33,533 bases of DNA from Spirochaetaceae bacterium (GTDB taxonomy: Bacteria > Spirochaetota > Spirochaetia > Treponematales > Breznakiellaceae): NCBI GenBank assembly GCA_031258615.1, contig JAIRMP010000121.1, forward strand, positions 1 through 33,533. Direction: 5' to 3'. Positions 14,104 to 22,767 of this stretch are shown here, in pieces. The notes below the pieces were generated by a model. It had not been told where the DNA came from and did not search any database. It saw only the letters and a program-made list of their open reading frames with translations. Every line of letters starts with the position of its first letter. Position 1 is the stretch's first letter. The translations under genes were made by a program, and so were the position numbers.

Positions 14104-15693
14104 ATGAAGTTGTTAGAGATGATAGTTACCGGTGAATGTGTCAACGACAATCCTTACAGGTTCCACGCCCGCAACCCGAACGGTACCGCCGAGCATACGG
14201 TTCATATAGTGATGCCGCTGGGCGGCGCCGAATCGGGGTTGTACCGGTCCCCGAGGAAGGGTGAGTCTGTGCTTGTGGCTGAGAACGACGGCGGCGACAG
14301 CAATATGTATTACCTCATGGGATATTTGCCGGACAGCGAGCAGCCCTTTACCACCGGTGATAAAAACAAGGTCATTGATGACAGCGGCGAGATATTCCGG
14401 TATAAAAAAACCGGCAAAAACGGCCCGGACGGTGAAAAGTATTCGGAAATCGGGTTTTACAGCAAACCTACCTCATGGAGAATGACGGAAGGAGGGGATG
14501 ATACTCCCAAAATCGACAGGATCAGCATACATTCCACCGGTGATCTTCATGAAGACTCCATAAACCACCATAAAACAAGCGCTAAACGCTTTGAGCTCCT
14601 GGTGAATTGCGGGGACGGCGATGGCGAGGGTGAAGTTGCGGGCTCCGGCGGGCAGGAAAACAAACGCCCTTTTGGGGACGGCAAGGGTGACGATTCGGAA
14701 CTTTACGCCGGGGATGCCCATATCAGGGCCAGGAACCGGCTAATACTCAAGGCGGGAGAAGAGATACGCCTGCAAGTAGGCCGTTCCGCTATCATCATCA
14801 GCGATGACGGTATCACTATTACCTCGAAAAAGTCGCAAAAAAATAACGCGGCCATTCCCTGGGATACGGTGATAAACCTGACCCCCCGCGACGGCATAAC
14901 GATGTTCGGCCAGAACGTGAATGTGGGGGCGGCTTACAACTTTTCACTACGGGAGAGCGCCGGGGGCGCCGTTTCCAGCCTGGGCGGGGTGATGCGCCTT
15001 TCCGCCCGCGACCTTCTGGCGCAGTCCTACTGCAAGGCGGGCTACCAGTCCAACATGACGGAATTTATCAGGCAATACACCGCCACGGCAAAGGGTATGC
15101 GATCCGAGGAGGGGGATGTCCCCTCTTACACCGCCCTCCTGCCGTCCCTGGTGCAGTGCTTCTCCGGCATCAACTGGGGGTACGCATCCTCCACCTCCAA
15201 CTATTCCGATCCGGCGGGGGACTACGCCGCCTACTGCGGCATCCTGCTACAGATCCTCAGCCTCACCTATACCGGACTGGACTTGAGCATGAGCGCCGAG
15301 ATGAAGCGGAGCGGCGGGCGGGATGCCTTTAACGCGGCGGTCCTGGCGGATATGCAGGAGAAGGTGCAGGAGATGCTGGGTTATATTGACGATGCCGGGG
15401 ACCCGGCGCGGGCTGTTCACAACAGCTTCATGCACCTGACATCGTCAGCGGATGCTGTTTTGAGCGGCTACGACAATGAGCGGCTTTCGGTAAACGTTAT
15501 CGACGGCAACGCGCCGCTGGCGGGAACCAGCGGTTCCCTTATCGCCAAGGAGACCGCCCGCCTGCAAAAGGGAAATTCCGCCGAGTCGACCATGAGAACC
15601 TTTCTTCAAAACGAAAAGGACCTGATTGACAAGGGCGCCCTATGGGCGCTGGGAATGGACGACAGCGCTCTAAATAAACTCAAGGAGTTATAA
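14104..15693 (+). CDS. vgrG: Cassette 1 gene 1: gp5-like spike (VgrG C-terminal half: OB-fold plus beta-helix) with a unique C-terminal extension
   Basis: GAGGAG RBS lies 5 nt upstream. OB-fold-like region: VHIVMPLGGAESGLYRSPRKGESVLVAE...YYLMGYLP. Beta-helix-like rungs: IDRISIHSTGDLHE, LYAGDAHIRARNRLILKAGEEIRLQVGRSAIIISDDGITITSKK and GITMFGQNVNV. The last ~225 aa are unique. Confidence 0.7.
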   Translation: MKLLEMIVTGECVNDNPYRFHARNPNGTAEHTVHIVMPLGGAESGLYRSPRKGESVLVAENDGGDSNMYYLMGYLPDSEQPFTTGDKNKVIDDSGEIFRYKKTGKNGPDGEKYSEIGFYSKPTSWRMTEGGDDTPKIDRISIHSTGDLHEDSINHHKTSAKRFELLVNCGDGDGEGEVAGSGGQENKRPFGDGKGDDSELYAGDAHIRARNRLILKAGEEIRLQVGRSAIIISDDGITITSKKSQKNNAAIPWDTVINLTPRDGITMFGQNVNVGAAYNFSLRESAGGAVSSLGGVMRLSARDLLAQSYCKAGYQSNMTEFIRQYTATAKGMRSEEGDVPSYTALLPSLVQCFSGINWGYASSTSNYSDPAGDYAAYCGILLQILSLTYTGLDLSMSAEMKRSGGRDAFNAAVLADMQEKVQEMLGYIDDAGDPARAVHNSFMHLTSSADAVLSGYDNERLSVNVIDGNAPLAGTSGSLIAKETARLQKGNSAESTMRTFLQNEKDLIDKGALWALGMDDSALNKLKEL

Positions 15694-15694
15694 A

Positions 15695-16087
15695 ATGCCG
15701 GGATCAATAGATATAGCAGCCGTCGTTAACAGTTATAGCGGAGATAAAACTATAACCACATGGGATGGTTTTGTTGAGGCGATTATTGTTACCGCGATAG
15801 ACAAATGTTCACTTCAAAGCCGTGTAAGCGCGGGAGCAGAGGAAGAAGAAGACTGGGCTAACACAACAGAGCGTGTGAATTTTTCATTGGGATTTACAGG
15901 CGAGGAAGTAGCTCTTCTCGGTGTGGGTTTCTCCCTGTCAGGCGCTGAGACGGGACTTCATGTCATGGCGGGTGATTGGGCGCTTCTCAAACAAATTTCA
16001 CAAATGGCTGGATGGGAAGATAAGGCTTTGGAGAAAAAAAACGTTGCAGCCGGGATGGCCGTGTTTGGCATTGACCTTATAGCATAG
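15695..16087 (+). CDS. Cassette 1 gene 2: 130-aa hypothetical protein with Gly-rich hydrophobic segments
   Basis: AAGGAG lies 7 nt upstream, inside the end of the spike gene, with a 1-nt gap to the spike stop. The ORF is 130 aa, the same length as the other two cassette gene-2 products, but I see no obvious sequence similarity to them. Confidence 0.55.
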   Translation: MPGSIDIAAVVNSYSGDKTITTWDGFVEAIIVTAIDKCSLQSRVSAGAEEEEDWANTTERVNFSLGFTGEEVALLGVGFSLSGAETGLHVMAGDWALLKQISQMAGWEDKALEKKNVAAGMAVFGIDLIA

Positions 16088-16108
16088 GGTGATTTGTGGA
16101 ATAGTATT

Positions 16109-20946: not shown

Positions 20947-20969
20947 CGGGCGGCGGTGTGATAGTATAC

Positions 20970-20998
20970 TTGTCCATGGCGGAATATTCAAATATACT
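20970..20998 (+). promoter_or_regulatory. Candidate internal sigma70 promoter ahead of cassette 3
   Basis: TTGTCC (20970-20975), a 17-nt spacer, then TATACT (20993-20998), within the 129-nt gap between cassettes 2 and 3. Confidence 0.35.
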
Positions 20999-21075
20999 TT
21001 TATGGAATGCGGTGGCCCGGTATGCGCTTTGGCGCCGTCCCGGATGAAAACAATTTAATTTGAGGAATGCGGACT

Positions 21076-22767
21076 ATGAATTTGTTTAACGAGATGACGG
21101 TTATCGACGCTTGCACCAAGGCGAGCCCGTACACGTTTACGGCGTCCATCCCCAACAGTGAGGCCGTACCCGTTAAGATGGTAATGCCGCTGGGCGGCGT
21201 GAAATCGGGGTTGTACCGGTCGCCCAAGGTAGGCGAGAAAGTGCTGGTAGCGGCGGTTGAGACCACCGGCACAGGCGACAATTCTAGCAGCACTACATAC
21301 TACCTCATGGGTTATCTGCCGAACGCGGAGAACCAGTCGTTTTTTGAAGCGAGTACGACAGCGGATGCCGGGGATGCCCACGATGTTATCACGGAGGGAG
21401 GCGAGGTATTCCGGTACAAGCAGACCGGGAAAAAGGCGGGAAAGGAAGGGAAAAACCCCTATTCGGAGATAGGGTTTTATCAGGAAAAGACGGACTGGAA
21501 GGCCGCCGAAGCAGAGACGGCGGATTACCAGGACTTTAACGGTGATTATCCCAAAATCGACCGGATCAAGATCCGTTCCACCGGGGACATTCATGAAAGC
21601 GCGGTGAACCACCACCAGATACAGGCAAAGCGGTTTGAACTGTTTGTGGATTGCGATGCCCCGGCAAAACCTGGGGATTATGAGTCCAACAGCCTCTTTG
21701 GGGACAGGACAGGGGACGATTCGACCCTGTACGCCGGGGATGCCCACATCAGGGCAAAAAACCGCATCGTGATCAAGGCGGGGGAATCGATAGAGCTTCA
21801 GGCGGGGCGGTCTTCTATTCTGATAAACGACGAGGGAATTACGATTGCCTCGCGGAAAACCCAGTCCAACCTGTACAACGGCTGGGACTCTTTGTTGGCT
21901 TTGAAGGCCAACAGGGGGATAACCATGTTCGGCCAGCACGTAGACATCAGGGGCGGCGTTGATTTTTCCCTCGCGGAAGGCTACGGCGGGGCTATACGCA
22001 GCAAACTGGGCGTCATGCGTATGACATCCTTTGATCTTAGGATGTTGAACATTAATACCTATAATTATCTGACCATGGGCATTGGAAACGGGCTTGATTT
22101 TTTGGCGAATTGCGGAACCATGAGCGCCGGATCCGCCGGGGCGAACAGCGGGATGGGAAAATCGCTGGGGCTTGTGTCGGTAGGGGAAAGGGCGGCCGCG
22201 CCTTTTCTCGCCTCCATGGGAAACTCCGCGGAAACCCGGGGTGCTGAGGATATTCCGACCGCGCTGCTCGGAACCGTTGACCTAGTACTGTCAATACTGA
22301 TGGCAGTCGAGATGGTCCTGGGCACGACGATCCCCAAAAAACTGCTGCGGGACAACCATGGGAGGGACGGTTTGTACACGGCCCTGGCGTGTGTAGAATA
22401 CGGCATACTGCTTGGCGCGTTCACTCAGTTATGTACCCCCCGTTTGGCGAATATTTTTGAATCCCTGATTGAGATGTGGGGCGGCTACGTGAAGCTGGGA
22501 GGGTATGAACTAGAGGAAATGTTCAATACGGAAAAATGTGTGAACTCGGCGCTTGCCGGCATCTCGAACACGAAGTTTAAGGATGCCTATAAAAACGGCT
22601 TTAAGGACTTTTTTGCGGGTCTGAAAGATAAGCTGAAAGAAAACGCTACATTGATAAAAATCGCCGTCGGCCTTGGCGTACCTGTGCTGGCCGGCGGTCT
22701 TGGGTATGGTTTTTTTGAGACCGCAGCCCAGAATAAGGAATTCGAAGAGGAGTTACGGAGTTTATAG
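21076..22767 (+). CDS. vgrG: Cassette 3 gene 1: gp5-like spike paralog with a unique hydrophobic C-terminal extension
   Basis: GAGGA at 21062-21066 lies 9 nt before ATG 21076, so the ORF-track start at 21067 is too close to the RBS. MNLFNEMTV...VKMVMPLGGVKSGLYRSPKVGEKVLVAA...YYLMGYLP is present. LYAGDAHIRAKNRIVIKAGESIELQAGRSSILINDEGITIASRK and GITMFGQHVDI follow. The C-terminal ~245 aa are unique, with several hydrophobic helices. Confidence 0.7.
   Translation: MNLFNEMTVIDACTKASPYTFTASIPNSEAVPVKMVMPLGGVKSGLYRSPKVGEKVLVAAVETTGTGDNSSSTTYYLMGYLPNAENQSFFEASTTADAGDAHDVITEGGEVFRYKQTGKKAGKEGKNPYSEIGFYQEKTDWKAAEAETADYQDFNGDYPKIDRIKIRSTGDIHESAVNHHQIQAKRFELFVDCDAPAKPGDYESNSLFGDRTGDDSTLYAGDAHIRAKNRIVIKAGESIELQAGRSSILINDEGITIASRKTQSNLYNGWDSLLALKANRGITMFGQHVDIRGGVDFSLAEGYGGAIRSKLGVMRMTSFDLRMLNINTYNYLTMGIGNGLDFLANCGTMSAGSAGANSGMGKSLGLVSVGERAAAPFLASMGNSAETRGAEDIPTALLGTVDLVLSILMAVEMVLGTTIPKKLLRDNHGRDGLYTALACVEYGILLGAFTQLCTPRLANIFESLIEMWGGYVKLGGYELEEMFNTEKCVNSALAGISNTKFKDAYKNGFKDFFAGLKDKLKENATLIKIAVGLGVPVLAGGLGYGFFETAAQNKEFEEELRSL

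Follow-up and report, generated by a model that had tools for sequence, protein, structure and literature searches.

Do the three spike proteins encoded by a type VI secretion system (T6SS) locus of a Spirochaetaceae bacterium carry three unrelated membrane-active effector domains at their C-termini, or versions of a single domain? The locus is complete and lies on the + strand within a window of 33,533 nt (the whole stretch of DNA analysed, contig JAIRMP010000121.1), where ClpV, a hub gene, three tandem three-gene cassettes and TssK follow one another in that order. Each cassette encodes a spike (A1-A3), a protein of 130 amino acids (aa; B1-B3) and a DUF6931 protein (C1-C3), with a spacing of 0-12 nt between genes. 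An earlier note on this DNA had read the C-terminal tails of the spikes as divergent, pore-forming or membrane-inserting effector domains with cognate partners downstream. Judged from profile comparisons, the three tails are divergent members of one uncharacterised, mostly alpha-helical end-domain superfamily, and membrane activity of the A2- and A3-type tails is a possible, candidate property. The parts of the cassettes are as follows.

14104-15693, + strand: A1, spike protein of cassette 1, 529 aa.
14104-15000, + strand: A1 spike core (aa 1-299; OB fold and beta-helix), from the paralog alignment and sub-threshold Phage_base_V and DUF2345 matches, with the fold taken from the A3 model.
15001-15693, + strand: A1 tail, 230 aa, non-hydrophobic subtype, C-terminus ...LNKLKEL.
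15695-16087, + strand: B1, 130 aa, non-canonical gene-2 protein with no transmembrane (TM)-like helix and no Pfam or NCBIfam match.
16094-17290, + strand: C1, 398 aa, DUF6931 (Pfam, 66 bits).
17385-19394, + strand: A2, spike protein of cassette 2, 669 aa.
17385-18548, + strand: A2 spike core (aa 1-388), which has two insertions that A1 and A3 lack.
18549-19394, + strand: A2 tail, 281 aa, moderately apolar subtype, C-terminus ...PTIEKL, with a Pro/Ala/Thr linker at nt 18819-18872.
19404-19796, + strand: B2, 130 aa, TM-like N-terminal helix (Kyte-Doolittle (KD) value 2.1, insertion free energy (dG) +1.6) and a C-terminus ...RTKAGASDIEVKALKMT conserved in a cross-phylum alignment.
19807-20946, + strand: C2, 379 aa, DUF6931 (Pfam, 79.6 bits).
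21067-22767, + strand: A3, spike protein of cassette 3, 566 aa.
21067-22023, + strand: A3 spike core (aa 1-319), from the AlphaFold2 (AF2) model and Foldseek.
22024-22767, + strand: A3 tail, 247 aa, most apolar subtype, C-terminus ...EEELRSL.
22768-23160, + strand: B3, 130 aa, canonical B, 64% identical to B2.
23180-24340, + strand: C3, 386 aa, DUF6931 (Pfam, 85.7 bits), 71% identical to C2.

The label 'gp5-like spike' for the A proteins, taken over from the earlier note, is sound on the strength of a structural model, because the A3 model matches known spikes. The full-length AF2 model of A3 (mean predicted local distance difference test (pLDDT) 72.8) was compared with Foldseek and matched Salmonella VgrS (9mlp), Pseudomonas VgrG1 (7q5p and 4uhv), the spikes of the Photorhabdus virulence cassette (PVC) and the antifeeding prophage (AFP), and P2 gpV, with E between 1.6e-6 and 1e-2 and a probability of 1.0; only the spike core was recovered in this way. 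Sequence models of spikes (Pfam Phage_base_V and DUF2345; NCBIfam vgr_GE) scored below threshold (16-19 bits vs 23.8; 14-17 bits vs 30.7), sequence and profile searches of the PDB gave no match for the spike family, and an exact-sequence look-up of A3 found no record. Together with the Pfam-identified genes of the locus, the model places these proteins among the gp5/VgrG-like spikes of a T6SS.

The divergence of the three proteins beyond the last shared rung of the beta-helix is real, with a global identity of 42-56% between the cores and 23-25% between the tails. The eight apolar strings, the Pro/Ala/Thr linker and the three last-rung motifs that had been quoted for these proteins were all present where the earlier note placed them: GVMRL at aa 295-299 of A1 (nt 14986-15000), SLSMGG at aa 383-388 of A2 (nt 18531-18548) and GVMRM at aa 315-319 of A3 (nt 22009-22023). 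This puts the first nucleotides of the tails at about nt 15001, 18549 and 22024, less than 20 nt from where the note had them begin. They had been called unalignable, which holds by eye, but profiles built from tail families align significantly. We analysed the best 120 of 121 proteins found in a homologue search with A3; nearly all of these came from termite-gut Treponema and Spirochaetaceae metagenome-assembled genomes, plus gut Alphaproteobacteria. Their tails fell into an A1-type family of 229-231 aa, an A3-type family of ~245 aa, an A2-type family of 250-320 aa and a long-tailed family with no member in the window. The A1 tail was 72-82% identical to 17 orthologue clusters of the same 229-231 aa. 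In profile-profile comparisons, A1-type tails matched A3-type tails (probability 97%, E = 1e-10), and A3-type tails matched A2-type tails (probability 93.5%, E = 2e-7). The apolar helix of each cassette (YAAYCGILLQILSLTY, LLGTVDLVLSILMAVEMVLG and IACLKMVLSITAAVYNAV) is one aligned helix in the same column block, and is followed in order by GRDxLN, a second long helix, HxSxxHLT, a beta-hairpin, PxAG and a C-terminal ELxxL.

Structure prediction of the A3 tail, which had been proposed as a check, returned a helical bundle but with low overall confidence and no significant fold match. AF2 placed helices at aa 328-353, 360-380, 393-418 and 429-456 and a hairpin at aa 464-475, so that the tail consists of four long helices, the beta-hairpin, an amphipathic helix and a Gly-zipper-like segment ahead of the terminal ...EEELRSL. 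When the tail was modelled alone, most of the helical part reached a pLDDT of 74-88. Foldseek searches with this tail-only model gave nothing better than E = 0.1, and in the PDB only generic helical bundles at E of at least 1.5; at the low confidence of the model, a colicin-like or other known pore-former fold was neither supported nor ruled out. No toxic or enzymatic domain was recognised in the tails with Pfam, NCBIfam, PDB sequence and profile searches or Foldseek against PDB and BFVD, and Pfam detected no effector domain in ten long spike homologues (698-931 aa, mostly of the long-tailed family).

The tail subtypes differed in conservation and composition. In 16 of 26 A1-type orthologues, conservation was higher in the tail than in the core of the same protein; in A2- and A3-type proteins it was always lower. 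An uncharged Gly-rich 19-mer near the C-terminus occurred in 9 of 12 A3-type tails and in none of 28 A1-type tails. The grand average of hydropathy (GRAVY) of A3-type tails was above 0, and their apolar helix had a KD value of 1.7-2.65 across the family. The A2-type tail was split exactly at the Pro-rich linker in ~10 distinct loci, giving a spike gene and a separate open reading frame (ORF) of 120-195 aa; the distal half of this tail is therefore an autonomous module. Examples of the split are found at 16903-17388 of locus L003 and at 12182-12544 of L007, as well as in L025, L027-L029, L043, L045, L050 and L053; the break in the L007 tail is marked by a low-complexity repeat, read as PEPLAGVLVP on the opposite strand.

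The long apolar stretches described for the tails reflect an apolar composition in A2 and A3, but the runs do not go beyond that composition and A1 has no such signal. Compared to the cores (GRAVY -0.46 to -0.63), the tails had GRAVY values of -0.25 (A1), +0.36 (A2) and +0.18 (A3). The best 19-residue KD window was 1.27 in the A1 tail, 1.89 in A2 and 2.15 in A3, and windows with KD of at least 1.5 formed no region in A1, three in A2 (1.8-1.9) and two in A3 (2.15 and 1.81). When each tail was shuffled 5000 times, the observed best window was reached in 39% (A1), 53% (A2) and 7% (A3) of the shuffles.

How far the tail extends beyond this spirochaete was examined with the tail profile, which was searched against 1.84 billion representative proteins (E ≤ 0.001) and for which 150 matches are listed. 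Among the new listed matches of at least 400 aa, 38 of 39 contain the spike core. The exception, a repeat protein of 4931 aa (P0169), has weak matches to profile positions 20-79 in 17 stretches, which are probably a low-complexity Ala/Gly artefact. Short matches were contig fragments or stand-alone proteins of 145-195 aa (~30 representatives) equivalent to the C-terminal half of an A2-type tail. A profile search of genome contigs with patterns from the spike alignment found no relatives, the patterns being too specific, and we used the DUF6931 (C) alignment as a handle in the contig search instead. This yielded 76 loci from termite Treponema and Spirochaetaceae (including the isolate Treponema sp. 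TIM-1), gut and rumen Alphaproteobacteria, Lentisphaeria/Victivallales, Mucispirillum schaedleri and Succinivibrionaceae. The Mucispirillum, Victivallales and Succinivibrionaceae loci (L056, L060-L065, L068, L079, L080 and L083) encode unsplit VgrGs of 950-1190 aa with the gp27 half attached, and the tails of these proteins fit the tail profile (hhalign 95%, E = 3.6e-8). Since split and unsplit VgrGs alike carry it, the tail is not an optional add-on but an end-domain that defines the VgrG of this T6SS lineage. An identity with the Campylobacter/Helicobacter T6SS lineage was considered and dropped, as a plasmid tblastn gave only a distant Vibrio match and no Campylobacter link. Loy et al. (PMC5285517), whose account of the Mucispirillum T6SS stops at the core genes, report its locus to be syntenic with that of H. 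hepaticus. We found no description of the tail, B and C module in the literature, where DUF6931 was mentioned once, in passing.

The cassettes themselves were constant in layout. All 86 parsed cassettes (76 distinct; 84 sequences) consisted of a spike, zero to three small ORFs and then DUF6931, and a canonical B stood between spike and C in 50 of the 76 distinct ones. Canonical B proteins have an N-terminal TM-like helix (KD ~2.1; dG +1.2 to +1.6, where dG, here and below, is a home-made, position-independent approximation of the Hessa biological hydrophobicity scale and not a validated predictor) and a C-terminus (...RTKAGASDIEVKALKMT) that is nearly identical from Alphaproteobacteria to spirochaetes. 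These C-terminal ~70 aa (...GEATAxxSGAxALRTKAGASDIEVKALKMT; window positions 19549-19796 and 22913-23160) are almost invariant in L001, L003, L005 and L007, gave no family match, and have small-Gly motifs spaced roughly 8 or 16 residues apart, by eye reminiscent of beta-helix repeats. Six distinct A1-type tails were never accompanied by a TM-bearing canonical B; the gene-2 partners of A1-type tails were short helix-less proteins (usually 105-130 aa) with only weak mutual similarity in alignment and, in one case, a 498-aa repeat protein. The latter (L006, 4815-6311; the same as in L058) has tandem 'LDGDEGLVAKGKTVQEA' repeats and a beta-rich C-terminus, and is possibly cargo.

C1-C3 matched DUF6931 (PF22011) above the 27-bit cut-off, in two stretches parted by an insertion, and the best 120 of 433 homologues of C3 were 59-89% identical to it. 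Cassette DUF6931 proteins end in an invariant YKRWKP (window positions 17240-17290, 20900-20946 and 24290-24340), preceded by a very variable linker of 0 to ~70 aa; the remainder of DUF6931 is 59% identical per column across phyla. At 2468-2824 of L006, a 118-aa chimera of a spike-core fragment (…YSEIGFY…PKIDRINIRS) and the C-terminal part of DUF6931 (…LSLSAFRAFGNLMP…YKRWKPP) resembles what the deletion of a cassette would leave behind. PDB sequence and profile searches gave no match for C3 or the C family, and neither B1-B3 nor C1-C3 matched DUF4123, DUF1795/Eag or DUF2169/Tvp in Pfam at E ≤ 0.1. Plasmid p2 of Vibrio crassostreae has short DUF6931 genes flanked by vgrG and PAAR, a position that points to a spike accessory role for the family.

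Genes 2 and 3 had been put forward as the cognate partners that might neutralise each tail. Across 32 cassettes, mean pairwise identity was 40% for the core, 26% for the tail, 40% for the N-terminal part of B, 65% for the C-terminal 70 aa of B and 61% for C. C is far more conserved than the tails, which does not fit the suggestion of a cognate immunity protein for gene 3. A partial Mantel test that controls for core and C divergence associated the tail with the N-terminus of B (r = 0.35, p = 0.0005) but not with its C-terminus (r = -0.14); the association of tail and C was weak (r = 0.12, p = 0.011). In gene 2, co-variation with the tail was limited to the N-terminal helix. DNA repeats between the cassettes of the window were confined to the cores, the 3' half of B and C. 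On the identity and Mantel results, the evolving unit is the tail together with the N-terminal hydrophobic helix of B, framed by conserved sequence.

We tentatively favour, at just short of an even chance, a clade-specific, variable spike-tip module made up of the helical tail, B and C, the apolar subtypes of which may insert in a target membrane together with B. The module would be iterated three times as alternative tips for a single gp27-like hub. In the producer cell, the marginally hydrophobic tail helices and the B helix would make physical contact, packed into a soluble bundle that caps the beta-helix, with C as a conserved assembly or chaperone partner. After firing, A2- and A3-type tails (the latter with their Gly-zipper-like segment) would be delivered into the target membrane with B and perturb it. 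The A1-type tail, which is non-hydrophobic, evolves slowly and has a different gene-2 partner, would probably dock a partner without inserting.

A number of observations weigh against this reading. The best tail windows had a dG of +3.9 (A1), +3.5 (A2) and +3.0 kcal/mol (A3), compared to -2.4 and -6.1 kcal/mol for the TM helices of TssL and TssM from the same locus and +2.5 for the soluble PAAR-like protein; the lipoprotein signal of the ORF at 24346-24918 scored 0.0. Each best apolar segment also holds charged residues. The shuffles and these controls indicate that the apolar runs follow from composition and are not discrete TM-like segments, and the runs may be no more than buried core helices. 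Of the membrane activity proposed in the earlier note, what stands is that A2 and A3 are unusually apolar and that A3-type tails have a Gly-zipper-like segment, but their dG is far from that of true TM helices and A1 is not hydrophobic. The tail-only model of A3 has an overall pLDDT of only 58.8, falls below 50 over ~105 of 247 residues, including the Gly-rich segment, and is without a significant match among solved structures or viral protein models (Foldseek against PDB and BFVD). Tail and B N-terminus are adjacent in the DNA, so that their co-variation could reflect shared recombination blocks and not contact. Secretion, membrane binding and toxicity may follow but are predictions from sequence.

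Some of these points also count in favour of a tail that never meets a membrane. It is quite possible, if on balance doubtful, that the tail is purely an assembly or adaptor head that recruits B, C or other cargo, its apolar helices forming the buried core of a (probably trimeric) bundle, in the manner of the C-terminal TTR and helical extensions of VgrGs and the Tvp, DUF2169 and DUF4123 accessory systems. In every parsed cassette the tail ends the spike, split or unsplit, upstream of C; the A1-type tail is non-hydrophobic and better conserved than its core in most orthologues (16/26); the extreme C-terminus ELxxL-COOH is kept across subtypes and looks like a docking motif; and the apolar runs stay within composition, with a dG of +3 to +3.9. 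The short DUF6931 genes between vgrG and PAAR (on the V. crassostreae plasmid and, by report, in Pseudovibrio) and the cargo-like 498-aa protein in the gene-2 slot of one A1-type cassette agree with such a role. However, A2- and A3-type tails are the fastest-evolving part of the cassette (26% against 40-65%), which would be odd for an adaptor with conserved partners, docking does not need the positive GRAVY or the Gly-zipper-like segments of A3-type tails, and no separate effector gene was seen in the cassettes (ORF list and Pfam). An explanation with no function of their own for the tails, as poorly constrained and largely disordered leftovers, would account for the low pLDDT over ~105 of 247 residues of the tail-only model and for the low-complexity linkers, but is highly improbable given that a length of 229-250 aa and the motifs are kept across phyla, that close A1-type tails are 72-82% identical and that the profile-profile matches are significant.

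The idea closest to the earlier note is that of three independent polymorphic pore-forming effector domains, each neutralised by a cognate downstream B or C. The arrangement of a variable tail and B N-terminal helix between a conserved core and a conserved B C-terminus and C resembles cassette swapping, B2 and B3 have a single TM-like helix as do many immunity proteins against membrane toxins, and three to five cassettes per locus resemble effector diversification. Nevertheless, we consider it decidedly unlikely. The tails are homologous to one another and to distant VgrG tails; among the listed matches, the domain was found on no carrier other than this spike family, save for weak matches to the 4931-aa repeat protein; and no toxin family was matched in Pfam, NCBIfam, PDB sequences or Foldseek. 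C averages 61% identity whatever the tail type, the C-terminal 70 aa of B, with a mean identity of 65% between Alphaproteobacteria and spirochaetes, do not follow the divergence of the tail, and A1 has neither an apolar segment nor a TM-bearing partner. A conserved delivery part joined to a variable tail is therefore an accurate description of these spikes, but the logic of polymorphic toxins does not extend to tails that form one homologous superfamily, are constant in this lineage and have no other carriers among the listed matches. A bolder version of the favoured spike-tip module is also unlikely, although somewhat less so. It supposes a T6SS lineage, horizontally spread among gut anaerobes of several phyla, whose own spike tip would be its main weapon, with the helical VgrG end-domain and the single-helix protein forming a hetero-oligomeric membrane pore or translocon, a DUF6931 chaperone for solubility, and tail plus B N-terminus as swappable cassettes; eukaryotic membranes, of the host or of protists, would perhaps be the target, and the lack of an obvious immunity gene would then be accounted for.

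Evolved VgrGs carry C-terminal effector domains, such as the ACD of V. cholerae VgrG-1 and the lysozyme-like domain of VgrG-3. As in these proteins, the beta-helix spike runs into an extra C-terminal domain (230, 281 and 247 aa) and several spike paralogues are present per locus; unlike in them, the domain is one homologous clade-wide end-domain and not an optional enzyme, no catalytic or toxin family was detected in it, and the VgrG is split. The C-terminal domain of Burkholderia VgrG-5 is needed for host cell membrane fusion and is the main effector of T6SS-5. Under membrane insertion, this system-specific VgrG C-terminal domain would be the nearest functional analogy, whereas the domain described here occurs in diversified subtypes and iterated cassettes and is tied to two partner genes. 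VasX, Tse4, Tme1/2 and Ssp6 are membrane-targeting T6SS effectors with TM or glycine-zipper segments. They resemble the tails as small or helical apolar proteins delivered by the spike, and in the Gly-rich uncharged segment of the A3 type, but the tails have no sequence or fold match to them, are far less hydrophobic in their segments than real TM helices and come without an evident separate immunity gene. The short VgrG of Francisella T6SS-ii consists of the gp5-like part only, as do the spikes here, which gave weak matches to NCBIfam T6SS_TssI_Fran; these matches reached 12.7-20.6 bits against a cut-off of 100, however, and all other genes here are of canonical T6SS-i.

Tvp spike-assembly complexes (DUF2169/DUF4150), recently described in Serratia, and DUF4123 and Eag/DUF1795 adaptors are encoded beside vgrG, and in Serratia a membrane-targeting effector is associated with VgrG1 (PMC13373197). 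As in these systems, for which assembly of an effector-loaded spike is proposed, conserved accessory genes stand directly 3' of vgrG in the cassettes, and Eag-type chaperones shield the TM helices of effectors; unlike them, B is without a Pfam match and the sole match of C is DUF6931. In T6SS-1 of Pseudovibrio, a short DUF6931 protein is encoded between vgrG and PAAR (bioRxiv 10.64898/2026.06.19.733351). The short Vibrio and Pseudovibrio proteins belong to the same Pfam family and occupy the same place right after VgrG, but they have ~195 aa compared to 379-398 aa here, where a large insertion and the YKRWKP tail are added. Searching PDB sequences with a profile lent no support to the 'SsdA-like immunity' label that the preprint gives to DUF6931. 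The module is thus of a known kind, an evolved VgrG with accessory genes; what is new here is the end-domain family and its two uncharacterised partners.

The remainder of the locus was that of a canonical T6SS, with TssA, TssB, TssC, Hcp, TssE, TssF, TssG, ClpV, TssK, TssL (DotU) and TssM all above Pfam cut-offs.

2701-3756, + strand: TssA (Pfam).
Same locus, + strand: TssB, TssC, Hcp, TssE, TssF and TssG (Pfam).
9922-12567, + strand: ClpV, from a ClpB-like sequence and AAA/ClpB domains in syntenic counterparts.
12564-12857, + strand: single-copy gene for a small PAAR-like protein of 97 aa (Pfam PAAR_motif at 24.4 bits, slightly short of the required 27).
12850-14079, + strand: gp27-like hub half of a split VgrG, 409 aa, single copy (Pfam Phage_GPD, 57 bits; N-terminal part of NCBIfam VI_Rhs_Vgr).
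24949-26349, + strand: TssK (Pfam, which also identified DotU/TssL and TssM).

The VgrG is split in this locus, with one hub gene directly upstream of the spike cassettes, one PAAR-like gene and three alternative gp5-like needles. An ORF of 95-97 aa occupies the PAAR-like position in the retrieved loci L001, L003, L005, L006 and L007 as well, and the one in L006 also has a weak PAAR match. Between ClpV and TssK, no other candidate effector gene was seen in the ORF list or with Pfam and NCBIfam. A lipoprotein-like ORF (MEVVMAKIWRLALTAVIAALTLVAC...) with no Pfam match lies between C3 and TssK at 24346-24918; its position and signal suggest a divergent TssJ, and ORFs of 190-259 aa are syntenic to it in L005, L006 and L007. 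In another + strand frame, long Arg/Gly-rich ORFs (20598-21047 and 23971-24340), most likely spurious, run across the 3' portions of C2 and C3, and their recurrence follows from that of the C genes. The locus is flanked by a rubrerythrin gene (1278-1868, + strand) and by genes for an ABC-transporter permease and ATPase (31809-33214, - strand). G+C content rises from ~48% in the flanks to 54-60% within the T6SS locus, which, with the cross-phylum distribution, fits horizontal transfer.

Gut anaerobes commonly carry this T6SS lineage, among them termite-gut spirochaetes and Mucispirillum schaedleri, a model commensal of mice, and next to nothing is known of their T6SS effectors. Whichever explanation applies, the impression of three unrelated toxins is corrected and a defined three-protein unit is obtained. 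If the tail acts as an adaptor, the module would still represent a new class of spike-assembly accessory system. If instead the favoured spike-tip module with membrane-inserting subtypes is true, it would bring to light a membrane-active domain of a new kind borne by the spike, along with B and DUF6931, the latter so far without a function, as new conserved accessory proteins, and would mean that effectors in this lineage diversify through the iteration of whole spike-tip cassettes on a split VgrG.

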